A DNA stretch of 59,127 nucleotides, the filler included. It is 3 parts of 3 records of this genome, joined end to end, with 100 filler letters (N's around TTAATTAATTAA, not from the genome) between each part and the next. Parts side by side here need not be neighbours in the genome. Positions count along the whole stretch, not along the records: positions 15,629 to 41,524 come from DRR378314_1644; 2 more parts are not named here. The stretch is one strand, 5' to 3'. Position numbers and translations under genes: made by a program. Shown here one piece after another: positions 15,630 through 33,436 of the stretch (positions are counted from its first letter, which is position 1; the number at the start of each line of letters is the position of its first letter). The notes beneath the pieces were generated by a model. The model was not told where the DNA came from. It worked only from the letters and a program-made list of their open reading frames with translations, and did not search any database.

Positions 15630-18600
15630 GGCAGCTATTTCTATTTCAACATCTGCTCGAACCCCGATCTGGTGGATGATGTGGGCATGTTCCTGTTGCG
15701 CCATACCGGCAACGACAAGGATTTCCTGTCAACGCGGGTCAGCCATGTGTTTGACCTCAAAGGCCCGTCGATCAACCTGCAAACCGCCTGTTCGACCTCT
15801 TTGGTGGCGATCCACTATGCCTGTCAGGCCCTACGTGCGGGCGAAATTGACATGGCGCTCGCCGGTGGGGTGACTATCGAATTGCCGCATGGGCGCGGCT
15901 ATGAATTCAAGGAAAATGAGATCCTGTCACCCGACGGGCATTGCCACGCCTTTGACCACCGCGCGCAGGGTACGGTTTTTGGATCGGGGGCAGGGGCGGT
16001 TGCCCTGCGCCGTCTATCGGACGCGATTGCGGATGGGGATCACATCTGGGCCGTGATCAAAGGATCTGCTGTCAACAATGATGGAGCGGCCAAAGCGGGC
16101 TATCTTGCCCCCTCGGTCGACGGTCAGACACAGGCCATTGCGGCGGCACTGGACGCGGCTGGCGTTGCTGCGCAAAGCATCGGTATGGTCGAATGTCATG
16201 GCACAGGCACCTATCTGGGTGATCCGATTGAGGTTGCCGCCCTGACCGAAGCCTACCGTGCGGAAACCGATGCCGTTGATTTCTGTCGCATCGGGTCGGT
16301 GAAAACCAACATCGGCCATCTGGATACCGCTGCAGGTGTTGCGGGGCTCGCCAAGGCGACGCTGGCGTTGCACAACAAACAAATGCCACCTTCGCTGGGG
16401 TATGAGGCACCAAACCCGGCAATCCCGTTTGAGGGCTCTCCCTTCCGCGTCAACGACAGCCTTGCGGATTGGGCTGCCGGTGATACACCACGCCGCGCCG
16501 CGATCAACGCGCTGGGCGTGGGGGGCACCAATGCTCATATGATCCTGGAGGAAGCGCCGGAACGCACAGCCTCCGAGGAAAGCGACTGGCCGTTTCATGC
16601 GCTGGTGGTTTCAGGTGCGTCGAAAGCGGCGCTGGATGCCAATACCGCTGCCCTTGCCGCACATCTACGCGCGCATCCTGAACAGCCATTGGCGGATGTT
16701 GCACATACGTTGAAAAATGGCCGACGTGCCTTTGAAAAACGCCGTGTGGTGGTGGCGGAAACCCATGCCGAAGCCGCCGATCTGCTGGACGGCGCGGATA
16801 CCCGTCGCGTCTTTACCCATGAGGCGCTTGGTGAAAACCCTGAAGTCGTCTTCATGTTCCCCGGTGGCGGGGCGCAATATGCGGGCATGGCACGGGACCT
16901 TTACGAAACCGAGCCGGAATTTGCAGAATGGATGGACCGTGGGTTGGATCATCTGTCGCCGCAGCTGGATTATGACATCCGCGCCCTGTGGCTGCCCGAG
17001 GTGGGGCAGGCTGATGCGGCTGCGGAACGGTTGAAGCAGCCATCGGTGCAACTGCCGCTGATCGCTATTGTCGAATATGCGCTGGCAAAACTCTGGATGT
17101 CATGGGGCGTGCAACCCGCCGCGATGGTAGGCCATTCCATGGGCGAAAATGTTGCGGCCTGCCTTGCCGGTGTGATGACATTTGAAAACCTGATAGATCT
17201 TGTTCTGCTGCGCGGTCGGTTGTTTGACGAGGTGCCCGCCGGTGGCATGTTGTCCATCTCGGCCCCGTTGTCGGCCATTGAGCCACTGCTCGGCGAGGAT
17301 CTTGATATCGCGTCGATCAACGCACCTGAACTGATCGCGGTTTCTGGCTCGCAGGCGGCGCTGGCTGCCATGCAGGGCCGGCTTGACGCGGCTGATATTG
17401 AATATCAGCGCATCGCCATCGATATCGCCGCGCATAGCCGCATGCTAGAGCCGATCCTTGCACGCTACCGCGCCTTTTTGGCCAGCATCGACTTGCAAGC
17501 ACCTAATATGCCGTTTGTCTCCAACCGCAGCGGCGCACAGATTACCGCGCAGGAGGCGACAAGCCCCGACTACTGGGTCGCCCAGCTGCGCAATACCGTC
17601 AACTTTGCCGATTGTATCACCACGCTCGCGGCCCCGCGCAAACGGATCTACCTTGAGGTCGGGCCGGGCAAGGCCCTGTCCGCCCTTGCGCAGATGCACC
17701 CTGATGTTGCGCCCGTACAGGTGCTGTCGACCCTGCGCCATCCCGATCAGGAAATTGCGGATGATGCCTATTTTATTTCGGTGATTGGCCGTCTTTGGGC
17801 CTGTGGGCTTAACGCCGATTGGTCCCAGATCTGGGGAGAGGCGAAGCGCAACCGTGTTATTTTGCCCACCTATCAATTCCAGCGCAGCCGCTATTTCATC
17901 GAAGCAGGGCAAGCGGCGCTTGCACCTGTGGCTGCGCCGCTTACGCGCAGCGATGCCATCGAAGACTGGGGCTCTGTCCCCGCATGGCGTCCGCGATTTG
18001 CCGATACGGATATGGATGTGACACGCGATCTGGGGGATGTCCCCTTGACGTGGTTGATGTTTGCGGATGGTGCGGGTCGTGCTGCGCCCGCCCTTCAACG
18101 TCTGAAAGATGCCGGTCATAGGGTTGTTTCCGTGCGGGCGGGTGATGCTTTCGCCCAGGCGGATGATGCGACCTATACGCTTGCCCCCGAACAGGGCCGT
18201 CAAGGCTATGACCAGCTGATCACCGACCTGAAACAGCGCGACTTGCTGCCTGACCGGATTGGGCATTTCTGGCTGACCGATGATCATCTGCCCCCGCGCG
18301 CAGGATCGTCCGAATTCGACCGCAATCTGGAACAGGGATTCTGGAGCCTGACCTGGCTTGCGCAGGCCCTGTCCGAGGCCGAATTTGATAAACCCCTGCA
18401 CCTCCTCGCCTTTACAGCAGGTGCGGCGCAGGTCCGCGAGGAGGCCGTTCCCCACCCCGAAGAGGCGCTGATTGCCGGACCTGTCGGTGTCTTTGCCCGC
18501 GAAATGCCCGATGTAACCTGTGCGCAGATTGATCTGGAGCCGGTTGCGGCGGCTGTTGCCCCGTCCAAAGGGTGGTTTTCAAAACCTGTCGAAACCCCGC

Positions 18601-21600
18601 CTGATGACAGTCTGACAGAGCCCTTGTTGGAAGAGCTGTTGGCCGTGCCTGCTAATACCATTGCGGCGCTGCGCGGGGCGAAACGTTTTGAACAAACTTA
18701 TCGCGACATTGGATTGCCAGAGGCAGAGGCACCGGCGTTCCGCGATGGCGGCACCTATCTGATCACCGGCGGTTTCGGTGGCATCGGCCTGACCTTGGCA
18801 GCCGATATTCTGGGACAGCATAATGCCCATGTGGTGCTTTTGTCGCGTGACCCGATGCCGGAACGGCAAGCCTGGGAAGGATACCTCAAGACCCACGCGA
18901 CCACCGATCGCACCGCGCGGCGAATGCATTCGGTGATGCGTCTTGAAACACTGGCGCAAGCGCGGGGCGGCACCATTGAGGTGGCGCAGGGCGATGTGGC
19001 CAACCTTGCCCAGATGCGCCGGGTGACACAGGATTTGACCACGCGCCATGGTGGGCTGACGGGGGTGATCCACGCCGCTGGTACACTTGATGATGCGCCT
19101 CTGCTGGCCAAATCGGATGCCAGCATTGACGCGGTATTGTCGCCCAAGGTTCAGGGGCTGCGCGTCCTTGATCAATTGCTGCCCGATGGCACGTTGGAAC
19201 TGATGGTGCTGTTTTCCTCTACCTCGACGGCCACACGGGCCGCAGGGCAGACCGACTATGTCGCCGCCAATGCCTGGCTGAATGCTTTCGCTGCTGCACG
19301 GCGCAACGGCAAAACCAAAGTGGTTGCGATCAATTGGGGCATCTGGTCGGATGTGGGCATGGCCGCCAAGGCGCTGAATGGTGCGGCCAGCGACGTCCTG
19401 CCGCCGCGCCCCGTTGAGGCCGCATTTCTGAAAACCGTGGGTGCGGATGCGGCGGGTGATCTGGTGTTCACTGCCCCTTTCACCACGCAAGATTGGCTGC
19501 TGGACCAGCACCGCACGGCACAAGGGCAGGCGATCCTGCCTGGCACCGGCTATATCGAACTGCTGGCCGAGACGGCCAAGGCACAGGGCATGACTGGGTT
19601 TGACATCCAAGACCTGTATTTCCTGCGCGCCATGCCGGTGGAGGAAGACAGCAGTCGTCAGATGCAGGTCACCCTGCGCCCGGACGGCAAGGGCTTTGCT
19701 GCCGAAATGCGCAGTGATTGCCGGTTGCAGGGCAGGGATGGTTGGCAACTGCACGCGCAAGCCGCCCTGAACCCGCTGACCGGAGTTGCGCCGGAAGATG
19801 TTGATATCGCATCACTTTCCGCGCGATGTGACGTGGCTCAGCAAAGCACTGCCGAGGCCCGTCTGAAATCCCCTCAAGAGGCGCATTTGAAATTCGGCCC
19901 CCACTGGCATGTCCTGTCCGAAACCCGGATGGGCAGGGGCGAGGGGGTGGCCAAGCTGACCTTGCCTGACGCCCTGTGCGGCGCTGAAAACGCGCCAGTG
20001 CTGCATCCCGGACTGATGGACCTGGCCACTGGCTGGGCCATCGCGCTGGTGCCGGGATATGGCGCGACCCACCTTTGGGTGCCGGTGTCTTATGGATCAA
20101 TCCGTGTTTATGCGCCGCTGCCGGATATGGTGTATTCTTGGGTACGCTTGCGCGAAGGGCACGGTGATTTTGCCCGTTTTGATGTGACAGTCTGTGACCC
20201 GGAAGGCCGCGTTCTGGTCGAAGTCAGCGATTTCGCGATGAAACGGCTTGAGGGCGACCTTGCAGCAATGCCTTTGACCACAGCCGAAGTGACTTTCACC
20301 GATGACAGCGCGGATGATGACAACCGCAGTCCCGCCGAGGAACAGCTGGCCTATCTGTTGTCGCAAGGCATCCGCGCCAGTGAGGGGCCGGAAGCCCTGC
20401 GCCGTGCGCTTGCGCTGGGCAAGCCGCAGGTCATGGTTTCATCGCTGCCCTTGCAGGGGTTGATCGAGCGCGCCAATACGCCAGCGGTTGAACAGGCTAC
20501 TTCAGGTCAGAGTTTCGAACGTCCCGATCTGGATGGTTCTTTCGTCGCACCGCGCAACGGTATTGAGGAACGTCTGGCCGGGATCTGGTCGAACCTGCTG
20601 GGCATCAGTCCGGTTGGGGTTGAGGACAGCTTTTTCGACCTTGGCGGGCATTCTCTGATTGCCGTGCGCCTGTTTGCGGCGGTGAAACGTGAGTTCAAGG
20701 TGGAATTCCCGATATCAGTACTTTTCGAGGCCCCTACAATTGCCAAATGCGCTGCCCTGATCGCGGCGGAAACCGGCGATCTGGGAGAAGCTTCGGAGGG
20801 GGAGACCCCCGCCGCTGCGCCAGAGAAATACGAATTTCTTGTGCCGCTGAACCAAAGCAATCAGCGCGATGCGCCACCCTTGTTCATTGTTGCGGGCATG
20901 TTTGGCAACGTGCTGAACCTGCGCCATCTTGCGCTGCCTTTTGCATCGGAACGGCGGGTGTTTGGTGTGCAGGCACGGGGGCTGATCGGGGAAACCGAAC
21001 CGCATCGCGATGTGGCCATCGCTTCCCGTGATTATCTGGCAGAAATGCAGCGTATGCAGCCAGAGGGGCCCTATCTGATTGCAGGGTATTCCGGCGGCGG
21101 GATCACGGCTTATGAAATGGCCAGACAATTGCGCGATGCGGGCCATGAAGTGGCTGTGGTGGCGATGTTTGACACGCCGCTGCCGGTACGCCCGTCGCTC
21201 AGCAGACCCGATAAGGCATTGATCAAGCTGGCTGAGCTGAAATCGAAAGGACCAGCATATCTGGTCGAATGGGCACAGAACCGCTGGGCTTGGGAAATGC
21301 GCCAACGCAACGAAGATGCTGCGCCTGATGCATCTGCGGGGGCGGAGTTCAACAACCTGAAAATTCAGGATGCCTTCCTTGAAGCGGTGGGGAAATACCA
21401 GACACCCGATTGGGACGGCCCGCTCACACTGTTCCGTCCGGCGCTTGATTTGCATTGGCCGGTGACGGGGGGCAGGTTTGTCAGCAAAGAGCGCGAATAT
21501 GTGTTCGAGGACAACGACTGGCGTCGATATGCGCCGCAGACTGAGGTGATCGAGGTGCCCGGTGATCATGACAGTATGATGCTGGCCCCAAATGTCACCA

Positions 21601-21686
21601 CTTTGGCGCAGGAGCTGCGCGAAGTGATCGCACGGGCACTAGACGATGAATCGGATGATTGGCAACAGGCAACGGCGGCACAATGA
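15630..21686 (+). CDS. Type I polyketide synthase KS-AT-KR-DH-ACP-TE, 5'-truncated
   Basis: Frame is open from the contig edge. KS: NDKD, LQTACSTS, HGTGT, GHLDTAAG. AT: GHSMG, IAAHS. KR: GGTYLITGGFGGIG, LDD, YVAAN. DH: WLLDQHRTAQGQAILPGTGY and LMD. ACP: FFDLGGHSL. TE: GYSGG and DHDSM. Confidence 0.95.
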   Translation, partial: GSYFYFNICSNPDLVDDVGMFLLRHTGNDKDFLSTRVSHVFDLKGPSINLQTACSTSLVAIHYACQALRAGEIDMALAGGVTIELPHGRGYEFKENEILSPDGHCHAFDHRAQGTVFGSGAGAVALRRLSDAIADGDHIWAVIKGSAVNNDGAAKAGYLAPSVDGQTQAIAAALDAAGVAAQSIGMVECHGTGTYLGDPIEVAALTEAYRAETDAVDFCRIGSVKTNIGHLDTAAGVAGLAKATLALHNKQMPPSLGYEAPNPAIPFEGSPFRVNDSLADWAAGDTPRRAAINALGVGGTNAHMILEEAPERTASEESDWPFHALVVSGASKAALDANTAALAAHLRAHPEQPLADVAHTLKNGRRAFEKRRVVVAETHAEAADLLDGADTRRVFTHEALGENPEVVFMFPGGGAQYAGMARDLYETEPEFAEWMDRGLDHLSPQLDYDIRALWLPEVGQADAAAERLKQPSVQLPLIAIVEYALAKLWMSWGVQPAAMVGHSMGENVAACLAGVMTFENLIDLVLLRGRLFDEVPAGGMLSISAPLSAIEPLLGEDLDIASINAPELIAVSGSQAALAAMQGRLDAADIEYQRIAIDIAAHSRMLEPILARYRAFLASIDLQAPNMPFVSNRSGAQITAQEATSPDYWVAQLRNTVNFADCITTLAAPRKRIYLEVGPGKALSALAQMHPDVAPVQVLSTLRHPDQEIADDAYFISVIGRLWACGLNADWSQIWGEAKRNRVILPTYQFQRSRYFIEAGQAALAPVAAPLTRSDAIEDWGSVPAWRPRFADTDMDVTRDLGDVPLTWLMFADGAGRAAPALQRLKDAGHRVVSVRAGDAFAQADDATYTLAPEQGRQGYDQLITDLKQRDLLPDRIGHFWLTDDHLPPRAGSSEFDRNLEQGFWSLTWLAQALSEAEFDKPLHLLAFTAGAAQVREEAVPHPEEALIAGPVGVFAREMPDVTCAQIDLEPVAAAVAPSKGWFSKPVETPPDDSLTEPLLEELLAVPANTIAALRGAKRFEQTYRDIGLPEAEAPAFRDGGTYLITGGFGGIGLTLAADILGQHNAHVVLLSRDPMPERQAWEGYLKTHATTDRTARRMHSVMRLETLAQARGGTIEVAQGDVANLAQMRRVTQDLTTRHGGLTGVIHAAGTLDDAPLLAKSDASIDAVLSPKVQGLRVLDQLLPDGTLELMVLFSSTSTATRAAGQTDYVAANAWLNAFAAARRNGKTKVVAINWGIWSDVGMAAKALNGAASDVLPPRPVEAAFLKTVGADAAGDLVFTAPFTTQDWLLDQHRTAQGQAILPGTGYIELLAETAKAQGMTGFDIQDLYFLRAMPVEEDSSRQMQVTLRPDGKGFAAEMRSDCRLQGRDGWQLHAQAALNPLTGVAPEDVDIASLSARCDVAQQSTAEARLKSPQEAHLKFGPHWHVLSETRMGRGEGVAKLTLPDALCGAENAPVLHPGLMDLATGWAIALVPGYGATHLWVPVSYGSIRVYAPLPDMVYSWVRLREGHGDFARFDVTVCDPEGRVLVEVSDFAMKRLEGDLAAMPLTTAEVTFTDDSADDDNRSPAEEQLAYLLSQGIRASEGPEALRRALALGKPQVMVSSLPLQGLIERANTPAVEQATSGQSFERPDLDGSFVAPRNGIEERLAGIWSNLLGISPVGVEDSFFDLGGHSLIAVRLFAAVKREFKVEFPISVLFEAPTIAKCAALIAAETGDLGEASEGETPAAAPEKYEFLVPLNQSNQRDAPPLFIVAGMFGNVLNLRHLALPFASERRVFGVQARGLIGETEPHRDVAIASRDYLAEMQRMQPEGPYLIAGYSGGGITAYEMARQLRDAGHEVAVVAMFDTPLPVRPSLSRPDKALIKLAELKSKGPAYLVEWAQNRWAWEMRQRNEDAAPDASAGAEFNNLKIQDAFLEAVGKYQTPDWDGPLTLFRPALDLHWPVTGGRFVSKEREYVFEDNDWRRYAPQTEVIEVPGDHDSMMLAPNVTTLAQELREVIARALDDESDDWQQATAAQ

Positions 21687-22690
21687 TGGCAGTTTCAAAC
21701 CCTAAAGTACTGGTGGTTTTACTGAACTACCGGACTGCTGAAATGACCCTGCGTGCCGCTGAGGCGGCGCTGGCTGATATGCCTGCGGGGGCTGAACTGG
21801 TGATTGTCGACAATGCCTCTGGTGACGGCTCAGCCGGTGTGCTGACCAACGCCATCACTGAACGGGGATGGGATGCGCAAAGTCGTGTGCGCCTGATCCT
21901 GTCAGAGGTGAACGGCGGTTTCGGCGCAGGCAATAACCTTGGTTTTAAGGCGGGGATGTCGGATGACAGCCGCCCCGATTATTTCTATGTGCTGAACTCG
22001 GATGCCTTTCCTGATCAGGGCTGTTTGCCGCATCTGATCCAGCATTTGGAAACCACACCCAAGGCTGGCATGGTCGGCAGCCATGTGCGCGGCGAGGATG
22101 ATCAGCCCCATACAACTGCCTTTCGCTTTCCGTCCATTGCGGGCGAGTTTGAGGGGGCGGCGCGCACCGGCCCGATTACCCGTTTGCTGAAATCCTATGT
22201 TGTCGCGCCTGATTTGCCGCAGACCGCCACACAGGTGGATTGGGTGGCGGGGGCCAGCGTGTTGATGCGGGCCAGCATGCTGGATGAAATCGGCATTTTC
22301 GACGAAACCTTCTTTCTTTATTTTGAGGAAACAGACCTGTGCAAACGGGCTGCGGTGGCAGGCTGGGAATGCTGGTATCTGCCGCAGGTCGGTGTGGTGC
22401 ATATCGGGTCCGTGTCCACCGGCATGAAAGAATGGCAACGCATCCCTGATTACTGGTTCGCTTCGCGCCGGCATTACTTTGTGAAAAACCACTCTCGCGC
22501 CTATGCGGCGGCGGCTCTTCTTGCCAAACTTGCGGGGGGGGCAATCCACCACCTGCGCTGCAAGATATCTGGCGCAACGCCGCAAGATCCGCCCGGTTTT
22601 AACCGCGACCTTTTGCGTTTCGGCCTTGGCTTGCCCCTGCGCCGTGACACCCCTGTGACCCGCCGTTCCGTATCGAAGGAAAACTCATGA
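21683..22690 (+). CDS. Glycosyltransferase family 2
   Basis: VVLLNY, IVDNASGDGS, NGGFGAGNN, LNSD, FFLYFEETDLC; ATGA overlap with the PKS stop. Confidence 0.92.
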   Translation: MMAVSNPKVLVVLLNYRTAEMTLRAAEAALADMPAGAELVIVDNASGDGSAGVLTNAITERGWDAQSRVRLILSEVNGGFGAGNNLGFKAGMSDDSRPDYFYVLNSDAFPDQGCLPHLIQHLETTPKAGMVGSHVRGEDDQPHTTAFRFPSIAGEFEGAARTGPITRLLKSYVVAPDLPQTATQVDWVAGASVLMRASMLDEIGIFDETFFLYFEETDLCKRAAVAGWECWYLPQVGVVHIGSVSTGMKEWQRIPDYWFASRRHYFVKNHSRAYAAAALLAKLAGGAIHHLRCKISGATPQDPPGFNRDLLRFGLGLPLRRDTPVTRRSVSKENS

Positions 22691-25600
22691 CCGCCACCTT
22701 CAATCCTCAAGCCTTTGATGCCCTTTTGATGGGCGATGAATCCCTGACCATTGCCTGTGGTGATATGATGTTGGCGGGCGGACATCGCCTGTCGGCGGTG
22801 ATTACCCGTGATGCCACGGTGCGCAACTGGGCCGAAGACAAAGGGCTGCCGGTCTTTGATCAGGCCAAGGAAATAGTGGGGGCCGGCCTTGCTGCGGATT
22901 GGTTGCTGTCCATTGCCAACCTGCGGATGATCCCGGCAGATGTGCTGGCGGTACCCACCAAGGGCGCGATTAACTTTCACGATGGTCCTTTGCCGCGCTA
23001 TGCAGGGCTGAACACCCCGGCATGGGCGGTGATCAACGGCGAGACCTCTCATGGCGTCAGCTGGCACATGATCGAGGGTGGCGTGGATGAGGGTGACCTG
23101 CTCGCGCAAAAAGAGGTGGCAATTGCGGCGGATGAGACGGCGTTCAGTCTGAACTCCAAATGTTACGCTGCCGGGATGGAGAGCTTTGCCCGCGTCCTGT
23201 CCCAATTAGAAACCGGTGGCTTGGAGCGCACACCTCAAGACCTGAGCCAGCGCAGCTATTTTGCCCGCGATCAGCGGCCTGAAAATATGGGTGTGCTGAA
23301 TTTCGACAAAGCTGCGGCACAGTTGGATGCATTGGTGCGGGGGCTGGATTTCGGCACCTATTGGAACCCGCTGGGCACAGCCAAACTTGCCCTTGAAAAT
23401 GCGTTTTACAGTATTGGCGGGCTTGAGCCCGTCGCGGGGCAGAGCGGTGCCGCAGGCGAGGTTCTGGCGGTTGATGCAAAGAGCGTCACAATTGCCACTG
23501 CGACCACCGCTGTGCGGCTGCGTGGATTGACCACATTGGACGGCACATCGGTGAACCCGACCAGCCTATGTGCGGTTGGCGATGTTTTGGCGTCGGCAGA
23601 TCTGCCTGAGCTGGAGGTCAAGGACGAAGCCATCTGGCGCAGCGCCCTGAGCAAGACGGCACCGGTTCCCGCCCCCTTTGTGACGGCGCAATCCGGCGAT
23701 GCAAATTGGGGGCAGCGGGCATTGTCGCTGCCTGCCGGGCTGTCTGCTGCGCAGGTAATCACTGCCGCATCCGTGGTCCTGTTGAATGGGGTCGAGGCCG
23801 GGCAGGGTGTGTTTGCATTGAAGTCGGCAAACACCCACCGGTTGGCCGCTGACTGGGTTCCACTGCGCATCGCCGCAGATGGCGCAGACGCTGTGCAAAC
23901 AGTGCATGATGCCGTGGCCCGCCAGCTGGAACGTGCGCAATCCTCTGCCGGTATGGCGCAGGACTTGCTGTCCCGCGATCCGGCGATCGTCGCGCAGGGC
24001 CAGCCGCAGATCGGTTTCTCGCTGGCGGCTGAACCTGTTGCATCCGCTGCGTTGACCTTGTGTCATGACGGCAAAGCGGCGCAGCTGATCTATGATAAAT
24101 CACGCCTGAGCGATGCGGCACTTGATCTGATCTCTGCCCGTATCGAAGCGGCGGCTACTGCCCTTGCCAATGCGCAACGCTGCGACGAACTGCGCCAGAT
24201 GCCCGCAAGCGAAGCGGCGCTGTTGCAAGGCTGGAACGCCACCGAGCGTGCCTATACCCCCAGCACCATCCATGCGGCATTTGAGGCACAGGTGGTGCGG
24301 ACCCCAGAAAGCGAAGCAATTGTTTTCGAAGGCGGAAGCCTTTCTTACGCGGCGCTGGATGCCCGCGCGAACAAACTGGCCCATGTGCTGCGTGCCCAAG
24401 GGGCCAGACCCGGCACACCCATCGGCTTGTTCACCACACGTGGCCTTGATCTGCTGGTCGGTGCGCTGGGCATCCTCAAGGCGGGCGGGGCTTATGTGCC
24501 GCTTGATCCGGCCTATCCTGCGGACCGCATCGCGCATTACATCAGCGACAGCGCCGCACCGTTGATTGTGACGCAAAGCGGCTTGGCCGCACAGCTGCCC
24601 GCCCATAGCGCAGAGGTTATTGCACTGGACAGTGATCCGCGTATCGCGGCGGCCCCTGAGGCAGAGCTTGAGGCTACGGCGACGCCTGATGATCTGGCCT
24701 ATCTGATCTATACTTCCGGTTCCACCGGCACGCCCAAGGGCGTTATGGTCAGCCACGGCAATGTCGCGAACTTCTTTGCCGGGATGGATGATCGCATCGA
24801 CCATGAGGCCGGCGCGGTCTGGCTTGCTGTCACCTCGCTCAGCTTTGATATTTCGGTGCTGGAACTGTTCTGGACCCTTGCACGCGGGTTCAAACTGGTG
24901 CTGGCCGGGGATGAAGCGCGCACTATGGTGTCAAACGGACCCATCGCCGTTTCGGATCGCAAGGTCGATTTTAACCTGATGTATTGGGGCAATGACGATG
25001 GTGTCGGCCCCAAGAAATACGAACTGCTGCTGGAAGGTGCCAAATTCGCGGATGCCAATGGGTTCAACGCGGTCTGGACGCCAGAACGGCATTTCCATGC
25101 CTTTGGTGGTCCTTACCCCAACCCGTCGGTGACCGGCGCAGCGGTGGCTGCGGTGACGCAGAACCTTTCGGTACGTGCCGGGTCTTGCGTGGCGCCGCTG
25201 CACCATCCCGCGCGGATTGCTGAAGAATGGGCGGTGATCGACAATCTGACCAACGGGCGGGTTGGCCTTGCCATCGCCAGCGGCTGGCAGCCGGATGATT
25301 TTGTGCTGCGCCCGGAAAACACACCACCCGCCAACAAGCCCGCGATGTATGCGGCCATCGACCAGCTGCGCCAGATGTGGCGCGGCGAGCCGGTGGAGTT
25401 TCCTAAACAGGACGGCACCATGCACGCTGTTGTCACCCAACCGCGCCCGGTGTCCAAGGAACTCCCGGTCTGGGTGACCACGGCGGGCAATCCGCAGACC
25501 TGGAAAGAGGCGGGCGAGATTGGCGCAAATGTGCTGACCCATCTTCTGGGGCAATCGATTGAAGAGGTCGCGGGCAAGATCAAGATCTATCATCAGGCTT

Positions 25601-27240
25601 TGCGTGATGCGGGCCATGATCCGGCGGATTTCACCGTGACCCTGATGCTGCACAGCTATCTGGCCGAGACTCGTGAACAGGCGGAAGATATCGCGCGGGG
25701 GCCGATGAAGGATTACCTGCGCTCTGCCGCTGCCTTGATCAAGCAATACGCCTGGGCGTTTCCTGCGTTCAAACGGCCTGAAGGCACGTCAAACGCCTTT
25801 GATCTGGACCTTGAAGGGGTGTCAGAGGACGAACTTGACGCGATCCTTGAATTCGCCTTCCTGCGTTATTTCAACGACAGCGGTCTATTCGGCACCGTGG
25901 CCGATGGCGTGGCGCGGGTCGAACAGCTGAAGATGATCGGCGTGGATGAGGTGGCCTGTCTGATCGACTATGGCATTGATCCGGCGCTGGTCATGGACGG
26001 GCTCAAGCCGCTGGCTGAGGTGCTGCGCCTGTCCAATCAGGGCACGGTTCTGGCAGAGGATGATTTCTCGCTTGCGGCACAGATTGTCCGCCACAAGGTC
26101 AGCCACCTGCAATGCACCCCGTCGATGGCACAGATGTTGGTCTCCAACGATGGTGCACGGGCGGCGCTGGGTCAGGTGAAACATCTGATGGTGGGTGGTG
26201 AAGCTTTGCCCGGGTCGCTGGTCAGCGCGTTGCAATCGGCCAGCGGTGCCAGCCTGCAAAATATGTACGGTCCAACGGAAACGACGATCTGGTCGACCAC
26301 CCAGATGATCAAAGATGCGGCGGATGCGACCGCCCCGATTGGCACGCCGATTGCAAATACACAGGCCTTCATCCTTGATGATAAGATGCGCCCGCAACCC
26401 ATTGGTATTGAAGGAGAGTTATGGATTGGCGGTGATGGCGTCACGCAGGGGTATTGGCAGCGCCCCAAGCTGAGTGACGAACGGTTTGTGGACAACCCCT
26501 TTGGTGCGGGCAAGCTCTATCGTACCGGCGATTTGGCGACATGGGATGCGACTGGTACGTTGCATTTTGCAGGCCGCGCCGATGCGCAAGTCAAGATACG
26601 CGGCCACCGGATCGAGCTGGGCGAGATCGAGGCACGGCTGGCCGAATTGCCCGGCGTTACCCAAGCGGTTGTCACCACTGTCGAGGCCTTTGGCAGCGAC
26701 CATCTGGTGGGATATGTCACATCACCAACACCGCTGGACCCGGAGCAGGCCAAGGTGGCGCTTACAGAAGTGCTGCCCGCGATCATGGTGCCGACCTACT
26801 ATGTCACGCTTGATGCCATGCCGCTGACGCCAAACAAGAAAATCGACCGCAAGGCCTTGCCACTGCCCGAACGCCGTCAGACACCGCGTGATGATGCCCC
26901 AAGCGCGCCTGCCAATGCGACACAGGCGACCATCAGCGAGGTTTGGACACGGCTGTTGGGGGTTGCTGATATCCGGGGCGAGGATAACTTCTTTGGTCTG
27001 GGCGGGCACTCCCTGCTGGCCGTGCAGGCGCACCGCGATATCAAGACGGCACTTGGCAGTGACAGCCTTTCGATCACCGATATTTTTCGTTTCCCCACAC
27101 TTGCAGGGTTGGCCGGGCATATCGACAAGGGGACCGGTGGGGCCGCCCCGGCAGCGGTTGCCCCTGCGCAGCCCGCCGCAACAGAGGCGATTTCGAAACG
27201 CCGCGCCATGCGGGCGGGACGCAGCAAGTCGGGTGCATGA
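22687..27240 (+). CDS. NRPS-like protein: formyltransferase, degenerate linker/C-like region, adenylation domain interrupted by a MupA/Atu3671-type luciferase-like monooxygenase, and T domain
   Basis: Formyltransferase: INFHDGPLPRYAG...GVDEGD. A3 YTSGSTGTPKG, A4 SFDISV. LLM insert about 24955-26035 (WTPERHFHAFGGPYPNP, GRVGLAIASGW). Then A5 NMYGPTETTIW, A6, A7 YRTGDL, A8 GRADAQVKIRGHRIELGEIE and A10 NKKIDR. T: FFGLGGHSL. Confidence 0.93.
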   Translation: MTATFNPQAFDALLMGDESLTIACGDMMLAGGHRLSAVITRDATVRNWAEDKGLPVFDQAKEIVGAGLAADWLLSIANLRMIPADVLAVPTKGAINFHDGPLPRYAGLNTPAWAVINGETSHGVSWHMIEGGVDEGDLLAQKEVAIAADETAFSLNSKCYAAGMESFARVLSQLETGGLERTPQDLSQRSYFARDQRPENMGVLNFDKAAAQLDALVRGLDFGTYWNPLGTAKLALENAFYSIGGLEPVAGQSGAAGEVLAVDAKSVTIATATTAVRLRGLTTLDGTSVNPTSLCAVGDVLASADLPELEVKDEAIWRSALSKTAPVPAPFVTAQSGDANWGQRALSLPAGLSAAQVITAASVVLLNGVEAGQGVFALKSANTHRLAADWVPLRIAADGADAVQTVHDAVARQLERAQSSAGMAQDLLSRDPAIVAQGQPQIGFSLAAEPVASAALTLCHDGKAAQLIYDKSRLSDAALDLISARIEAAATALANAQRCDELRQMPASEAALLQGWNATERAYTPSTIHAAFEAQVVRTPESEAIVFEGGSLSYAALDARANKLAHVLRAQGARPGTPIGLFTTRGLDLLVGALGILKAGGAYVPLDPAYPADRIAHYISDSAAPLIVTQSGLAAQLPAHSAEVIALDSDPRIAAAPEAELEATATPDDLAYLIYTSGSTGTPKGVMVSHGNVANFFAGMDDRIDHEAGAVWLAVTSLSFDISVLELFWTLARGFKLVLAGDEARTMVSNGPIAVSDRKVDFNLMYWGNDDGVGPKKYELLLEGAKFADANGFNAVWTPERHFHAFGGPYPNPSVTGAAVAAVTQNLSVRAGSCVAPLHHPARIAEEWAVIDNLTNGRVGLAIASGWQPDDFVLRPENTPPANKPAMYAAIDQLRQMWRGEPVEFPKQDGTMHAVVTQPRPVSKELPVWVTTAGNPQTWKEAGEIGANVLTHLLGQSIEEVAGKIKIYHQALRDAGHDPADFTVTLMLHSYLAETREQAEDIARGPMKDYLRSAAALIKQYAWAFPAFKRPEGTSNAFDLDLEGVSEDELDAILEFAFLRYFNDSGLFGTVADGVARVEQLKMIGVDEVACLIDYGIDPALVMDGLKPLAEVLRLSNQGTVLAEDDFSLAAQIVRHKVSHLQCTPSMAQMLVSNDGARAALGQVKHLMVGGEALPGSLVSALQSASGASLQNMYGPTETTIWSTTQMIKDAADATAPIGTPIANTQAFILDDKMRPQPIGIEGELWIGGDGVTQGYWQRPKLSDERFVDNPFGAGKLYRTGDLATWDATGTLHFAGRADAQVKIRGHRIELGEIEARLAELPGVTQAVVTTVEAFGSDHLVGYVTSPTPLDPEQAKVALTEVLPAIMVPTYYVTLDAMPLTPNKKIDRKALPLPERRQTPRDDAPSAPANATQATISEVWTRLLGVADIRGEDNFFGLGGHSLLAVQAHRDIKTALGSDSLSITDIFRFPTLAGLAGHIDKGTGGAAPAAVAPAQPAATEAISKRRAMRAGRSKSGA

Positions 27241-27944
27241 GCATCATGCCGGGGGCGGTGCATCGGGCGCAGACGCAGGCCGTGATTGCCGCGCTGTTTG
27301 ACGATGCGCATGATATCTCTGTGGCGGTTGGGGTGCGTGATCCACGGGCCCCACAACCGCCGACCCTCGCCGATGAGGCGGCCCATCTGCGACAGGCGCT
27401 TGAACCGCGCCAACGGGAGTTTGCCGCAGGACGGGCCGCGGCGCGGGATGCGATGGCGCAGCTGGGCCTTGACCCTATGGCCATTCCCGCAGCCGCAGAT
27501 CGCGCGCCCCTTTGGCCGCAGGGGGTTCGGGGCAGCATTTCGCATAGCAACTCACTTTGTGCTGCGGTACTTACCCGTGATGCGGCATCGCTGGGCGTTG
27601 ATATCGAAGCAGACATGCCGCTGGATGCGGATCTGCTGTCCACCATCTGTTCAGATCACGAGCAAGCCCGTATCGCCGGACCGGACCAGCTTTGGCTGGC
27701 GAAACTGATCTTTTCCGCCAAAGAAGCCAGCTATAAGGCGCAATACCCGCTGACGCAGATGCTGTTTGGCTTTGACCATCTCGACGTGGCGCTGGACTTG
27801 CCGGGGCGGGCATTTACCGCAACTTTCCTGAAACCGGCGGGGGATTTCGTGGCGGGCGACAAACTGCCCGGGCGGTTCGATCAATTTCAGGGTCACCTTG
27901 TCACGGCAGCTTGGGCTGATAAATCTTTGTTCAAAGGAGCCTGA
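27237..27944 (+). CDS. 4'-phosphopantetheinyl transferase (EntD/Sfp type)
   Basis: EFAAGRAAAR, PLWPQGVRGSISHS, LGVDIE, FSAKEASYKA; ATGA overlap with the NRPS stop. Confidence 0.92.
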   Translation: MSIMPGAVHRAQTQAVIAALFDDAHDISVAVGVRDPRAPQPPTLADEAAHLRQALEPRQREFAAGRAAARDAMAQLGLDPMAIPAAADRAPLWPQGVRGSISHSNSLCAAVLTRDAASLGVDIEADMPLDADLLSTICSDHEQARIAGPDQLWLAKLIFSAKEASYKAQYPLTQMLFGFDHLDVALDLPGRAFTATFLKPAGDFVAGDKLPGRFDQFQGHLVTAAWADKSLFKGA

Positions 27945-27948
27945 GTTG

Positions 27949-28893
27949 ATGCCGTTATTTACCCGTCGTGCTGCCCTTGGTCTTTTGACAGTGGCGCTTG
28001 GAATCGGTGGCTACAGCTATGTTCGCCGCCAGCAACAGGCCAGGTTGGTCCAGTCATTTTATGATCAGCCCTTGCCCAAGCCGGAAGGCGGGTTGCAGGT
28101 CTACCATCTGGGGCATTCTCTGGTGGGGCGCGACATGCCTGCGATGCTGGCGCAGCTGGCGGGTGCGGGGCACACTTACGACAGTCAGCTGGGCTGGGGC
28201 ACCTCCTTGATGCAGCATTGGGAGCCGGATCAGCCGGTCAACGGGTTTGACGTGGAAAACGATCATCCCCGGTTTCGCGCGGTGGAAGGGGCGCTGGCTT
28301 CTGGCAGCTATGACGCCTTGGTGCTGACCGAGATGGTCGAGATCGAAGACGCCATCCGCTATCACGACAGCGCTGACTATCTGGCGAAATGGACGACGCT
28401 GGCACGGGACAGCAACCCGCAGATACGGATCTATCTTTATGAAACCTGGCATCACACCAATGATGCGGCGGGCTGGTTGACACGGATTGACGCGGATTTG
28501 AAAAAGTTTTGGCAGGGGCAGATCATCCATCCGGCCATGGCCAAGACCGATGCGCCGATCCACCTGATCCCTGCCGGTCAGGTGATGGCGGCCTTTATCC
28601 GTGCGCTCACGGCGCTGGGTGGTCTGGACGGGGTGACGGGGGCGGATGATCTGATGGCCGGAAATGCGGATGGCACTGCTGACACCATCCACCTGAATGA
28701 TCTGGGGGCCTATCTGGTGGCACTGACCCATTACGCGGTGCTTTATCACCGCTCGCCCGAGGGGTTGCCCTTTGCATTGAACCGCGCTGATGGCACACTG
28801 GCGGACGCGCCATCGCCCGCGGTGGCGGCCTTGATGCAGCGCAGCGTTTGGGAGGTGGTCCAGCGCCACCCGGAAACAGGAGTAGCGGCATGA
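27949..28893 (+). CDS. SGNH/GDSL-like hydrolase-fold protein with twin-arginine N-terminal anchor
   Basis: AGGAG RBS at 27935-27939; MPLFTRRAALGLLTVALGIGG leader; block I-like GHSL and block V-like DTIH. Confidence 0.65.
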   Translation: MPLFTRRAALGLLTVALGIGGYSYVRRQQQARLVQSFYDQPLPKPEGGLQVYHLGHSLVGRDMPAMLAQLAGAGHTYDSQLGWGTSLMQHWEPDQPVNGFDVENDHPRFRAVEGALASGSYDALVLTEMVEIEDAIRYHDSADYLAKWTTLARDSNPQIRIYLYETWHHTNDAAGWLTRIDADLKKFWQGQIIHPAMAKTDAPIHLIPAGQVMAAFIRALTALGGLDGVTGADDLMAGNADGTADTIHLNDLGAYLVALTHYAVLYHRSPEGLPFALNRADGTLADAPSPAVAALMQRSVWEVVQRHPETGVAA

Positions 28894-31406
28894 CCGGTTT
28901 GGCGACATTGTTTTCAGTGCTGATGGTCGGCCACAGCCTGTTTGGCCCAACGGGGCCCAGTATGCTGGAACAGGCGCTGCTGGCGGGCACCGGCGATGCA
29001 AAGGTTCAGGCGCAGATCATCAACGGGGCACCGCTGCGCTATAATTGGGAGAAATCCGACACAGCCGAAGGAGTTGACGCCCGCGCGGTGCTGCCTGCAG
29101 GGGGCATCAGCCATCTGATCCTGACCGAAGCGGTGCCATTGGAGAACCACACGCAGTTTTCCGAGACAGATGTTTACGCGCAGGCCTTTGCCGGTCTGGC
29201 GACCGCTGCCAATCCGAAGGCACATATCTATGTGCAGGAAACATGGCACAGTTTGAAAAGCGGCACTGGTGAAGCGGTGGAACATGATGCCAAGGCGGAT
29301 ATTCCCTGGCGGGTCCGGCTGGATCAGGATTTGCCGGTCTGGGAAAATATCGTGGCACAGATTGCGGCGGGCACCCGTGCGCAGACCGCTACGGTTTCGC
29401 TGATCCCGGCGGGACAGGCGATGGCACGGTTACATGCTGAAATTGCGGCGGGGCAGGTGGCGGGGATCACGGATATTGCCGCACTTTTTGACGATGACAT
29501 CCACCTCAATGACACGGGCCATTACTTTGTGGCAATGGTGCAATATGCGACGCTGACGGGGCAATCTCCCCTCGGCCTGCCGGTCGATTTCAAAGACCGG
29601 TTTGGCAAGGCCTATGACACCCCGGATGAGGATACGGCCCGTATTTTACAAGCCATCGCATGGGGGGCGGTGCAGGCCTATGGCACCCTGCCTGCAAAAC
29701 CGGTTTCCCTGACAAAAACAACGGGGCGTGCCAGCATGGCCCCTGCGGCACCGACCGGCCCGCCGAAAGACCTGAGCCTGCCCCCTGAAGGGGCGGTGCA
29801 GGGCAGTAACGCTGTAGCGATCGGTTTGGCCTCTGTCGCGGATTGGAGCACGCAACTGCCCTTCCTGGATCTGATGAAAACCGCGCGCCCCTGGATCGGC
29901 CATAAGGCGGGCCAATGGGGCGGTATGGAGCGGGCGCAGATGCGCGCAGAAGGGGTTCTGGATGCTGATGGCTGGCCGCTGAAAATGCCGCGTAGTCTGG
30001 GCAGTATTGGCACATTGATCCTGACCGACATGCCCGAAGCGGCCACATCGTTGAAAGGGCGTTACCGGCTGAAGTTTGACGGGAAAGGCGTGATCGAAGT
30101 TTCAGGGCGTGCTGAAAAGGTGCGCTATGGGAAGGGAGAGGTCACATTTGACTACACACCGGGGCCGGGCAGTGTCGACATTCGCATCCAGCGCATCAAC
30201 ACCACCAACCCGCCACGCAACATCAGCGTGGTGCATGGTGACAATATCCGGCGTTTTGATCAGGGCGCGATATTCAACCCCGCATGGACCGCCCGCATTG
30301 GGCAGTTTCGTGCGTTGCGGTTTATGGACTGGGCAGAAACCAATAACAGTACGCTGTCGGATTGGGCCGAACGGCCGCAGGTCGATGACGTCACCTATGT
30401 GGACGGGGTGCCGGTTGAGGTGATGATTTATCTGGCCAATGAGTTGGAGAATGATGCGTGGTTCAACATGCCCCATCTGGCGGATGATGCCTTTATCCGC
30501 GCCTATGCCGAACTGGTCCGCGACAGGCTGGACCCGGAATTGACCGCCTATGTCGAGTTTTCGAATGAGGTGTGGAACTGGCAATTCTCACAGGCGGTCT
30601 GGGCGGATGAAAGCGGCTTGGCCCGCTGGGGCGAAAAGGACAAATGGATGCAGTACTACGGGCTGCGGGGCGCCGAAGTGGCACGGATCTGGTCAGAGGT
30701 TTTTGCCGGGGAGCCAGAGGATCGGCTGGTCAATGTGGTCTCTTCACAGACCGGTTGGCTGGGCTTGGAGAGTGAAGTCTTCACCGCGCCATTGGCCGTG
30801 GCCGAAGGGCTGGCAGCGCCGGTTGACGCCTTTGATGCCTATGCGGTCACAGGGTATTTTGGCGGGGTTCTGGGTTTGGAGGACCGTCAGGAGATGGTGA
30901 AAACTTGGTTGGCGGACAGTGCTGCTAAGGCGCAAGCTCAGGCAGAGGCGCAGGGGCTCACGGGGGAGGCGTTGCAGACCTATATCGCCACGCACCGCTT
31001 TGACCATGCCACTGAATTGGCAGAGCGCGAGTTGATGAACGGCAGCGTCAGCGGCAACCCCGAGGATACCTTGCAGGATCTGATTGGCCGCGTGTTGCCG
31101 CATCACGCGCAGGTGGCCCGTGCGCATAACCTTGATCTGGTGATGTATGAGGGGGGCACCCATATCGTCGGCATTGGCGGTTTGGTCGAGGATACGGATT
31201 TGACCGAATTTATGCATCACCTGAATTATTCTGCCGCAATGGGCCGTCTTTATAGGGCGCTGCTGGATGGCTGGAAAGCGGTCGGTGGACAGTTGTTCAA
31301 TGCCTATTCAGATGTCTACGCACCGACAAAATGGGGCTCCTGGGGGGCGCTGCGCCATCTGGATGACAGCAACCCGCGCTGGGATGCATTGGTCGATTTC
31401 CAATGA
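28890..31406 (+). CDS. Two-domain protein: SGNH-like domain (paralog of upstream gene), Pro/Ala linker, putative carbohydrate-active TIM barrel
   Basis: N-terminal VGHSL...YVQETWH...LIPAGQAMA...DDIHLND. C-terminal RFMDW, YVEFSNEVWN, LVMYEGGTH, KWGSWG. ATGA overlaps at both ends. Confidence 0.7.
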   Translation: MTGLATLFSVLMVGHSLFGPTGPSMLEQALLAGTGDAKVQAQIINGAPLRYNWEKSDTAEGVDARAVLPAGGISHLILTEAVPLENHTQFSETDVYAQAFAGLATAANPKAHIYVQETWHSLKSGTGEAVEHDAKADIPWRVRLDQDLPVWENIVAQIAAGTRAQTATVSLIPAGQAMARLHAEIAAGQVAGITDIAALFDDDIHLNDTGHYFVAMVQYATLTGQSPLGLPVDFKDRFGKAYDTPDEDTARILQAIAWGAVQAYGTLPAKPVSLTKTTGRASMAPAAPTGPPKDLSLPPEGAVQGSNAVAIGLASVADWSTQLPFLDLMKTARPWIGHKAGQWGGMERAQMRAEGVLDADGWPLKMPRSLGSIGTLILTDMPEAATSLKGRYRLKFDGKGVIEVSGRAEKVRYGKGEVTFDYTPGPGSVDIRIQRINTTNPPRNISVVHGDNIRRFDQGAIFNPAWTARIGQFRALRFMDWAETNNSTLSDWAERPQVDDVTYVDGVPVEVMIYLANELENDAWFNMPHLADDAFIRAYAELVRDRLDPELTAYVEFSNEVWNWQFSQAVWADESGLARWGEKDKWMQYYGLRGAEVARIWSEVFAGEPEDRLVNVVSSQTGWLGLESEVFTAPLAVAEGLAAPVDAFDAYAVTGYFGGVLGLEDRQEMVKTWLADSAAKAQAQAEAQGLTGEALQTYIATHRFDHATELAERELMNGSVSGNPEDTLQDLIGRVLPHHAQVARAHNLDLVMYEGGTHIVGIGGLVEDTDLTEFMHHLNYSAAMGRLYRALLDGWKAVGGQLFNAYSDVYAPTKWGSWGALRHLDDSNPRWDALVDFQ

Positions 31407-32236
31407 AAACCTCGGTTCTGATCCCCGCCCATAACGAAGCGGATTACCTGCCGGCCTGTTTGACGGCCTTGCTGACCTCTGAGCCGGTGGCAGGGGGCGT
31501 GCAGGTGGTGGTGATTGCCAATGGCTGCACGGACAATACCGCAGAGATTGCCCGTGAGTTCACCGCGCAGGCCGAGGAAAAGGGCTGGCAGCTGCTGGTG
31601 CTGGATGTTGCGCAGGGCGGCAAGTTGAATGCCTGGAACAAGGGTGAGGCGGCGGCGTCGGGTGAGGTGTTGATTTATCTGGATGCGGATGTGGTGGTCT
31701 CGCCGCAGGTGGTGGTGCAAATCACCGATGTGTTGGATGTGGACACGCCACGATATGCCAGCGGGCGGGCCAATGTGACCTTGACAGGGGAGGATACGCT
31801 GACGCGGCATTACACGCGGTTCTGGTTGACCACACCCTTCATGGTGCATGGTGTGCCCGGTTTCGGGGTGTTTGCGATGAATCGCGCGGGGCGTGCGCGT
31901 TGGGGCGACTGGCCTGATATTATTTCGGATGATACCTTTGCGCGGCTGAACTTCACACCCGCAGAACGGCATAGTGTGCCCGCAGACTACGACTGGCCAA
32001 TGATCGAAGGGTTCACCCGTCTGGTACAAGTCCGCCGCCGTCAGGACATTGGCGTGGCAGAGATCGAAACCGGCTATCCGGAACTGATGGTCAACGACGA
32101 TACCCATGATCAAACGGTGCCGCTGTGGAAACGCGCGCTGAAAGATCCGGTGGCCTTTGTGGCTTTTGCTGCGGTGCGCCTTGCGATCCGCCTGCCAATC
32201 CTGCGCAGCGGCAATCGCTGGGCACGGGGACGTTAG
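31403..32236 (+). CDS. Glycosyltransferase family 2
   Basis: SVLIPAHNEA, NGCTDNT, GGKLNAWN, YLDAD (DxD); stop overlaps the convergent GT4 stop. Confidence 0.9.
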   Translation: MKTSVLIPAHNEADYLPACLTALLTSEPVAGGVQVVVIANGCTDNTAEIAREFTAQAEEKGWQLLVLDVAQGGKLNAWNKGEAAASGEVLIYLDADVVVSPQVVVQITDVLDVDTPRYASGRANVTLTGEDTLTRHYTRFWLTTPFMVHGVPGFGVFAMNRAGRARWGDWPDIISDDTFARLNFTPAERHSVPADYDWPMIEGFTRLVQVRRRQDIGVAEIETGYPELMVNDDTHDQTVPLWKRALKDPVAFVAFAAVRLAIRLPILRSGNRWARGR

Positions 32237-33423
32237 GAGCCGCTGATATGGGCCGCCAGCTTGGCGGCCTCAGTGCTGATGTCATGGCGTTCCAACACGC
32301 GCTGGCGCGCCGCATCGCCCATGGTGGTCAGCTTCTTCAAGGGCGTTTTGGCAAAGACCTCTATCGTATCGGCCAAGGCATCAACGTCCCCCGCAGGCAC
32401 CAGCCAGCCGTGAGTGCCATGCTGCACCAGCTCTGGTGTGCCAGCGATATAGGTGGCGATGACGGGGCGGGCGGCGGCCATGGCTTCCATCACCACCATC
32501 GGCAGTCCTTCGGCAAAGCTCGGCATGACCAGCGCATGGGCGGCGGCAAGTTCGCCGTTCACCCCGGCCTCGTCAAGCCAGCCGGTCAGGGTGACCCGGT
32601 CCTGTAACTTGTGCTCGGCAATCGCGGCCTCGATCAAGCCGCGCATCTCGCCATCTCCGATCAGGGTCAGCTGCACATTGGCCTGCACCTGCGCCAGCGC
32701 CTTGATCACGGCAAGCTGGCCTTTCTGTTCCACCAGCCGCCCGATGGCGACAAGGCGGCGCGGGCCGTCCGGTATCGGGGCCGGGTCTTTAAATTTTTGC
32801 GGTTCAATCCCGCAATGCACCACTTTGATCTTGTCCCAATCTGCGGGCGCGGCCCAGCGGCACAGCTGCGAGCGGCCAAACTGGGTGATCGCAACGGTGA
32901 AATCGGAATGCGCAATCTTGCTGCCCAAGGACAGGGCGCGGGGGGCGTCATATTCTTCCGGGCCATGTACGGTGAAACTGTATTTCGGGCCGTCCAGAAG
33001 GGCGCTGAACATCGCCACAGCGGCAGAATTGGTGCCAAAATGCGCATGGGCATGGGCGACCCCTTCGGCGCGACAGCGTTCCGCAACAAAGGCGGCTTCG
33101 GCTAGATAGATCAGATGGCGCAGTACGCCGACTTCGGAAACCCGGCCAAGGGTGATGGCGGTTTTGGTCGCTTGCCAGAATTGCGCCGCATCGCGTTTTA
33201 CCGCGCGCCAGCTGGCACCGAGCAGATGCTTTTTACCCTCGGCCAACACATATTCCGTGCGCTCTGCTTCATAGCGGTCCTGTGGATCAACCAGAGGATC
33301 ACCGCTGGGACGCATCGCCATGCGAAACACGTCATGGCCTGTGGCTTCAAGCGCGCGAATCTCGCGGCGGATGAAACTCTGTGACGGCTGCGGGTAGGTG
33401 TTCAGAATATATGCAATTTTCAA
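32233..33423 (-). CDS. Glycosyltransferase family 4 (WcaL-like)
   Basis: TTG start giving MKIAYILNTYPQPSQSFIRREI; HAHAHFG, IGRLVEQKG, EGLPMVVMEAMA (EX7E). Confidence 0.9.
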   Translation of the reverse strand: MKIAYILNTYPQPSQSFIRREIRALEATGHDVFRMAMRPSGDPLVDPQDRYEAERTEYVLAEGKKHLLGASWRAVKRDAAQFWQATKTAITLGRVSEVGVLRHLIYLAEAAFVAERCRAEGVAHAHAHFGTNSAAVAMFSALLDGPKYSFTVHGPEEYDAPRALSLGSKIAHSDFTVAITQFGRSQLCRWAAPADWDKIKVVHCGIEPQKFKDPAPIPDGPRRLVAIGRLVEQKGQLAVIKALAQVQANVQLTLIGDGEMRGLIEAAIAEHKLQDRVTLTGWLDEAGVNGELAAAHALVMPSFAEGLPMVVMEAMAAARPVIATYIAGTPELVQHGTHGWLVPAGDVDALADTIEVFAKTPLKKLTTMGDAARQRVLERHDISTEAAKLAAHISGS

Positions 33424-33436
33424 GGTAGGTTTCCGC

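Follow-up and report, generated by a model that had tools for sequence, protein, structure and literature searches.

In the Roseobacter lineage, a cluster comprising a polyketide synthase (PKS), a glycosyl transferase (GT), a nonribosomal peptide synthetase (NRPS), and a 4'-phosphopantetheinyl transferase (PPTase) has been described, and the passages of PMC5014874 that deal with it report that its product is not identified. The corresponding passages of PMC4337385 place the roseobacter cluster in 28 of 57 genomes, likewise with an uncharacterized product. The former credits the cluster to Martens et al. 2007, whereas the text and references of the latter give Martens et al. 2006; where they treat the cluster, neither maps the NRPS domains. 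In more recent genome papers, the cluster continues to appear as T1PKS/NRPS-like and unmatched. Here, we describe the NRPS of one such cluster, encoded on a 59,127-nucleotide stretch of DNA (the window). The window consists of three joined contigs, with runs of N flanking a TTAATTAATTAA spacer at positions 15529-15628 and 41525-41624, and the NRPS gene is located on the middle piece (15629-41524). It carries the same four genes in the same order as the conserved roseobacter cluster and is a member of it. The NRPS itself is 99% identical to a protein that its source names from Sulfitobacter pacificus.

Two kinds of described NRPS module resemble parts of this protein. In the first, a formylation (F) domain, a glycine adenylation (A) domain, and a peptidyl carrier protein (PCP) form a loader that feeds a PKS, as in conglobatin (CongA), oxazolomycin (OzmO), phthoxazolin (PtxE), and rhizopodin biosynthesis (PMC4504003, PMC5764310). 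As presented in the sections of these papers on the loaders, all four resemble our NRPS as stand-alone loaders in which formylation, glycine adenylation, and carrier domains are combined, and PtxE is an F-A-PCP protein without the inserted monooxygenase that our NRPS has. In the second kind, a luciferase-like monooxygenase (LLM, or MOx) lies within a glycine A domain. The MOx-Gly modules of MtaG and MelG hydroxylate the C-alpha of glycine, and the resulting carbinolamide then cleaves to leave a terminal amide; in module 4 of SolF, which makes solanimycin B, the alpha-hydroxyglycine from the MOx-Gly module is retained (PMC10204066). A first-pass annotation of our window had invoked the MtaG and MelG precedent, which PMC10204066 restates, but because SolF retains alpha-hydroxyglycine, the terminal amide is not the sole outcome on record. 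Compared by published descriptions, MtaG, MelG, SolF, and our NRPS are alike in the position of the monooxygenase within the glycine A domain. The described modules, however, act in elongation or termination, where a condensation (C) domain gives glycine its N-acyl group, whereas our protein has a formyltransferase in place of an active C domain and starts the line. The roseobacter cluster, the F-A(Gly) loaders, and the MOx-Gly modules are thus known already, and what is new is the combination of both module types in a loader. On balance, we lean toward the reading that this NRPS is the loading module of a conserved roseobacter PKS-GT-NRPS-PPTase cluster, with formylation, alpha-hydroxylation, one PKS round, and a product that may be glycan-linked.

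Pfam searches of the NRPS identify Formyl_trans_N at residues 64 to 170 (1.4e-18), Formyl_trans_C at 200 to 293, AMP-binding in two stretches (1.3e-88), Bac_luciferase at 776 to 1033 (1.6e-44), AMP-binding_C at 1313 to 1385, and PP-binding at 1415 to 1479. Together with NCBIfam, these matches recover every domain that the first-pass annotation had placed in the protein, namely the formyltransferase, the split A domain, the LLM, and the carrier (T) domain. The core motifs of the A domain are intact despite the insertion (A3 at residue 677, A4 at 720, A5 at 1192, A7 at 1278, A8 at 1296, and A10 at 1383). The LLM falls between A4 (FDIS) and A5 (NMYGPTE), where NCBIfam model TIGR04020 (MupA/Atu3671 LLM) matches residues 762 to 1112 with 469.5 bits against a cutoff of 244.45; the limits earlier estimated for the insert, about 24955 to 26035, are close to those obtained with this model (Table 1). 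The closest solved structure to the insert is PuwE (PDB 6ket; 325 bits, end-to-end alignment), which is a separate 362-residue chain, whereas the query monooxygenase sits inside the A domain.

We read the substrate specificity code from motif anchors, using GrsA position numbering. The residues are D721, I722, L725, Q1142, M1168, G1170, M1193, I1201, W1202, and K1385, giving DILQMGMIWK, the same code that had previously been read by eye. A match to GrsA (PDB 1AMU; protein residues 1163 to 1395 against chain residues 294 to 527) agrees with the assignment of M1168 to position 299 and K1385 to position 517. In the parts of a 2025 survey that treat such domains (PMC12283262), all four MOX-bearing glycine A domains examined have the code DILQLGMIWK, and glycine codes vary at positions 299, 322, and 330. 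The query code is identical to DILQLGMIWK at 9 of 10 positions, and the sole difference lies at position 299, one of those listed as variable. The glycine assignment of the first-pass annotation therefore stands, and the published MOX-Gly code occurs exactly in 5 of 19 orthologues. LgrA module 2 was tried as a glycine reference and dropped; it has N, L, and C at code positions where the query has Q, M, and G, and it matches the query with 168.8 bits, against 156.6 bits for LgrA module 1.

The region upstream of the A domain was examined with an AF2 model of residues 1 to 540, built from a 39-row alignment in which the query is joined by 34 orthologues and 4 distant F-starting NRPSs, and searched by fold with VIA-align against 48,161 chains. 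The model has a pLDDT of 92. Residues 10 to 302 form a complete two-subdomain formyltransferase whose best match is ArnA (PDB 1z7e; Z 27.0, rmsd 2.4, 284 residues aligned). Residues N96, H98, and D134 align to the motifs of WbkC and LgrA, and this triad is invariant in all 35 aligned sequences. In PDB sequence searches, the F domain scores 77 bits with WbkC, 66 bits with ArnA, and about 35 to 36 bits with the F domain of LgrA. Like our NRPS, LgrA (F-A-T; PDB 5es5 and 6mfz) has an N-terminal formyltransferase, and the two folds match with a Z of 17.7, but the LgrA domain, which acts on a carrier-bound amino acid, aligns only to residues 9 to 225 of the model. Compared with LgrA, our protein has an extra second subdomain of the FMT/ArnA type (residues 200 to 302), a C-domain lobe, a glycine code, and the monooxygenase insert. 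Indeed, F is not fused directly to A, since the second subdomain and a 215-residue C-lobe lie between them.

This C-lobe corresponds to residues 307 to 522 of the model, which superpose on the C-terminal lobe of condensation domains: McyB (8hlk chain residues 191 to 465; Z 17.6, 210 aligned), SrfA-C (2vsq chain residues 187 to 459; Z 17.1), and the SrfA-C C domain (8f7f chain residues 191 to 441; Z 16.9). A profile of 35 orthologues also aligns residues 464 to 524 with the final stretch of the C domain in LgrA. Pfam finds no family in the linker alone (residues 295 to 531, E up to 10), and a PDB sequence search of residues 1 to 531 returns formyltransferases only, with no C-domain match. The N-lobe, which bears the HHxxxDG motif in C domains, is missing from the model. 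A regular-expression search likewise finds no HHxxxDG anywhere in the protein, extending what had been noted for the stretch between F and A; the only HH is at residue 839, inside the LLM, and the 19 orthologues also lack the motif. With neither the N-lobe nor HHxxxDG, the linker cannot be an active C domain, and an upstream chain entering through such a domain, which the first-pass annotation had named as fatal to its proposal, is ruled out by the fold.

The assignment as an initiation module, which that annotation had also made, is borne out by the partner PKS as well as by the linker. In the window, the PKS gene lacks its first ~160 codons, its 5' end having been lost at the first contig junction; a (CAAA)n run at 15500-15528 closes the contig preceding this junction. 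The nearest genome examined (G001), whose NRPS shares 98% identity with ours, encodes a complete PKS of 2165 aa (L009:3230-9727, minus strand). It has a KS from residue 28, followed by AT, KR, DH, ACP, and TE domains; it has no loading domain, and its TE is the only one in the cluster. With a PKS that begins with a KS and carries the only TE, the layout points to the NRPS as the start of the line and the PKS as its end, an architecture that would suit transfer of the loaded unit to the KS. The window copy keeps the KS cysteine (TACSTS) and both histidine motifs, as read from the sequence, and its best NCBIfam model is PKS_plus_SDR, with a score under the cutoff. The four genes from PKS to PPTase (15630-27944) are adjacent and all on the plus strand, with overlapping stops and starts; the NRPS ATG overlaps the stop of the GT2 gene, and the NRPS stop overlaps the start of the PPTase gene. 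Their common strand and these overlaps indicate that PKS, GT2, NRPS, and PPTase are read as one operon. The gene order PKS, GT, NRPS, together with the service of the MOx-Gly unit in amide formation in MtaG and MelG, could instead suggest an MtaG-like terminal module, to which the PKS chain is passed and from which hydroxylation releases a terminal amide. We consider this extremely improbable, because the protein has neither N-lobe nor HHxxxDG and so no condensation catalyst, and because the TE lies on the PKS, itself without a loading domain, rather than on the NRPS.

To assess conservation, we compared one locus from each of 20 additional family genomes, representing 19 other genera and one more genome of the same genus. 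Orthologue counts are based on 19 sequences, with one locus (L021; G179:C5:1089833-1109832) excluded because no intact NRPS open reading frame passed the filter. That locus has only partial matches to the NRPS and PKS, with an open frame of 1288 aa, and its copy may be broken or masked. The N96, H98, and D134 triad and the carrier serine, Ser1442, are present in 19/19 orthologues, and nine of the ten code positions are constant in all of them (DILQMGMIWK in 11, DILQLGMIWK in 5, DILQFGMIWK in 2, and DILQYGMIWK in 1). Averaged over the orthologues, identity to the query amounts to 77% for the LLM, 62% for the N-terminal part of the A domain, 60% for T, 58% for the C-terminal part of A, 47% for F, and 27% for the C-lobe. 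Judged by these identities, the LLM is the most constrained domain and the C-lobe behaves like a scaffold. The invariant triad and serine, together with the high conservation of the LLM, suggest that all of the activities are under selection. A short basic tail is also kept in the query and 19/19 orthologues; the Pro/Ala-rich spacer preceding it is poorly conserved. This tail is a possible docking element, and no conserved partner for it was found among the PKS N termini compared.

Full-length copies of the NRPS are present in 19 of 25 genomes of the genus. With the F-plus-C-lobe region as the query (E <= 1e-40), matches occur in 98 of 301 genomes and 97 of 300 genera of the family, and in 14 of 401 genomes sampled from the phylum, 10 of them in the same family and 4 in three other families of the class. 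The closest proteins, source-named Sulfitobacter, share its set of Pfam domains at identities as low as 61%. We further searched residues 1 to 760 against 1.84 billion representatives and followed 8 of the 150 matches listed, plus P0234, a sixth F-domain match; the listing is dominated by giant NRPSs, in which many A domains sum in score. Among the matches followed, the F - C-lobe - A head opens four multimodular NRPSs (P0124, P0132, P0147, and P0185) with 30 to 36% identity over residues 8 to 749. The first A domain is uninterrupted in P0124, P0132, and P0185, and the A4 residues are unlike the glycine pattern in all four, P0147 included. Monooxygenases 45 to 49% identical to the query LLM are found inside the large NRPSs P0171 and P0206. 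With the head in other NRPSs and relatives of the LLM elsewhere, the loader looks like an F-starter scaffold joined with a MOx-Gly A domain.

The same comparisons bear on whether the F domain could formylate an amino sugar of a polysaccharide pathway rather than the glycyl thioester. By PDB sequence search, it is closest to sugar N-formyltransferases and ArnA; ArnA is also its best fold match, and the gene lies in a polysaccharide locus. F is, however, fused in one chain with A-T in every orthologue, the same head opens the four multimodular NRPSs above, and no aminotransferase or sugar dehydratase gene was found among the locus open reading frames scanned. An amino-sugar substrate is thus very unlikely.

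In the scheme that we favor for the loading module, glycine would be adenylated and loaded on Ser1442, and the F domain would formylate the glycyl amine, a step with parallels in LgrA, OzmO, and CongA. This would give an N-acyl-glycyl thioester, the type of substrate whose C-alpha is hydroxylated by the MOx domains in MtaG, MelG, and SolF, and the monooxygenase would correspondingly alpha-hydroxylate N-formyl-glycyl-S-T. The N-formyl-alpha-hydroxyglycyl unit, or a glyoxylyl unit formed by its collapse, would then be handed to the KS of the neighboring PKS, which may carry out one malonyl extension, reduction, dehydration, and release by the TE. The predicted small C4 acid would be glycosylated or attached to a cell-surface glycan, rather than being a free antibiotic. 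Collapse to glyoxylyl would mean that the formyl group mimics a peptide-bound residue and that the carbinolamide releases formamide, leaving glyoxylyl-S-T as the PKS starter. The architecture expected for this course is identical to that of the preferred scheme, and sequence does not tell collapse of the carbinolamide from its survival. Solanimycin B nevertheless keeps its alpha-hydroxyglycine, so that cleavage is not obligatory, and it would be wasteful to spend a formyl group and then discard it; we regard a glyoxylyl starter as distinctly unlikely. An oxazole is not expected either. Oxazole-polyketide loaders, in the sections cited above, have an adjacent PP-loop cyclodehydratase (SGGKDS), and a six-frame search for SGG[KR]DS (OzmP/CongE-type) gave 0 matches, both in the window and in every one of 22 related loci.

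The proposed attachment to a glycan draws on the gene neighborhood. Across the 20 loci, the PKS is found in 20, the GT2 gene between PKS and NRPS in 19, and the PPTase in 19, and 18 have all four genes in the same order. Downstream of the operon, the window contains seven polysaccharide genes (Table 1). Homologues of these occur in the loci to varying extents: GT4 in 11, the chain-length determinant in 10, the tyrosine kinase in 8, the SGNH-like protein and the 852-aa protein in 6 each, the second GT2 in 5, and the priming transferase in 1. Of the 20 loci, 15 contain one or more of the seven, against 0 of 20 control regions from the same genomes at a distance of 200 to 300 kb. With a GT2 in its conserved core and polysaccharide genes at its flanks, the cluster would more likely yield a glycan-linked product, although this is the weakest step of the scheme. 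For the core GT2 (21659-22690), a PDB sequence search gave no match, and the best NCBIfam model, MftF, is weak (49 bits against a cutoff of 280).

Table 1. Predicted genes of the cluster, domains of the NRPS, and neighboring genes in the window
Feature	Coordinates	Strand	Basis
Type I PKS, KS-AT-KR-DH-ACP-TE, 5' end cut	15630-21686	+	Pfam + intact orthologue in G001
GT2 glycosyltransferase, between PKS and NRPS	21659-22690	+	Pfam
NRPS loading-module gene, 1517 aa, F - C-lobe relic - A(Gly, LLM-interrupted) - T - basic tail	22687-27240	+	Open ORF, Pfam, NCBIfam
Formyltransferase (F), two subdomains, ArnA/FMT type, residues 10-302; N96, H98, D134	22714-23592	+	Pfam, VIA-align
Relic C-terminal lobe of condensation domain, residues 307-522	23605-24252	+	AF2 model, VIA-align
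A domain, N-terminal part; A3 SGSTGTPKG at residue 677, A4 FDIS at residue 720	24259-24966	+	Pfam, motif search
Luciferase-like FMN monooxygenase (LLM), MupA/Atu3671 family, inside A domain	24970-26022	+	TIGR04020
A domain, C-terminal part; A5 NMYGPTE at residue 1192, A7 YRTGD, A8, A10 NKKIDRK	26023-26871	+	Motif search, 1AMU match
T (carrier) domain; phosphopantetheine Ser1442 in GGHSL	26929-27123	+	Pfam
Basic C-terminal tail, M(S/A)(K/R)RRxMRAxR-like, residues 1500-1513	27184-27225	+	Query + 19 orthologues
Sfp-type 4'-phosphopantetheinyl transferase (PPTase)	27237-27944	+	Pfam, NCBIfam
Membrane-anchored SGNH/DUF4886-fold protein, accessory, in 6/20 loci	27949-28893	+	AF2 pLDDT 85, Foldseek
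852-aa protein, N-terminal SGNH-like paralogue + unassigned C-terminal part, accessory, in 6/20 loci	28848-31406	+	BLASTP
Second GT2	31403-32236	+	Pfam/NCBIfam
GT4, EpsE-like	32233-33585	-	Pfam/NCBIfam
Chain-length determinant	33437-34747	-	Pfam/NCBIfam
Tyrosine autokinase	34923-35879	-	Pfam/NCBIfam
Priming sugar-phosphate transferase	35928-36671	-	Pfam/NCBIfam

Several points weigh against the loading-module scheme with a glycan-linked product. Within the 20 kb examined, 5 of the 20 loci have no homologue of the window polysaccharide genes. As related genomes do not count as independent cases, the comparison establishes linkage to these genes rather than repeated acquisition, and the linkage may be inherited. 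The five loci, along with the classification of the cluster as T1PKS/NRPS-like in genome-mining papers, would be in keeping with a free diffusible metabolite, such as a signal or antibiotic, for which the polysaccharide genes are merely inherited neighbors. We find a free metabolite unlikely: a GT2 belongs to the conserved core (19 of 20 loci), the loci contrast with the control regions, and domain scans of the window showed no transporter or resistance gene in the operon. In addition, the F domain appears nearer by score to sugar N-formyltransferases than to the F domain of LgrA. The KR precedes the DH in the PKS, unlike the usual modular order, so that iterative use is possible. For all members of the cluster, the literature searched gave genome-mining mentions only, with no characterized product, mutant, or biochemistry. 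Finally, whether formylation precedes hydroxylation, how stable the carbinolamide is, and where the product ends up are matters of inference.

Overall, the glycine code and the starter role put forward in the first-pass annotation hold, but its interpretation had missed that the cluster is a known orphan, that F-A(Gly) loaders are known, and that the genes lie in a polysaccharide locus. Tentatively, the four-gene unit could be a glycan-tailoring or glycan-priming line, in which a C4 acid derived from formyl-alpha-hydroxyglycine is built into a surface polysaccharide. The hydroxyl left by the monooxygenase or by the KR would then be the acceptor for the GT2, and the formyl group would make the starter glycine the N-acyl substrate that the monooxygenase needs.

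The two genes directly downstream of the PPTase encode related proteins (34% identity by BLASTP, E 9e-32). The first has a membrane-anchor helix and invariant G-H-S and D..H blocks, and its best Foldseek match is 4i8i (DUF4886; E 4e-8), followed by SGNH esterases and O-acetyltransferases. The second, of 852 aa, has ~550 further residues beyond its SGNH-like part, containing the string NEVWNW. It has no Pfam, NCBIfam, or PDB sequence match, and its only match in the Atlas is probably its own cluster. From the model of the first and its fold matches, the pair may modify the glycan as esterases or acyltransferases. In G001, genes upstream of the PKS encode a Wzy-like protein, two glycosyltransferases (one WecG-type, one GT2), and an H-NOX/diguanylate cyclase pair. 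The last of these, an H-NOX haem-NO-binding protein with a GGDEF diguanylate cyclase, lies ~4 kb upstream of the PKS (L009:13730-15369, minus strand), on the far side of the Wzy-like and glycosyltransferase genes, which hints at NO/c-di-GMP control of the polysaccharide locus.

Bacteria of the Roseobacter group rank with the most abundant heterotrophs of the sea and are often found as partners of algae. About a third of the genera in the Roseobacter family carry this PKS/NRPS cluster, for which no product was reported in the literature searched. Its loader would join N-formylation and C-alpha hydroxylation, which are described only in separate modules in the literature covered, and with both predicted activities in one loader, the product would be an unusual N,O-acetal-type unit. 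If this unit ends in a surface polysaccharide, assembly-line chemistry would be linked to the glycans of biofilms or host attachment.

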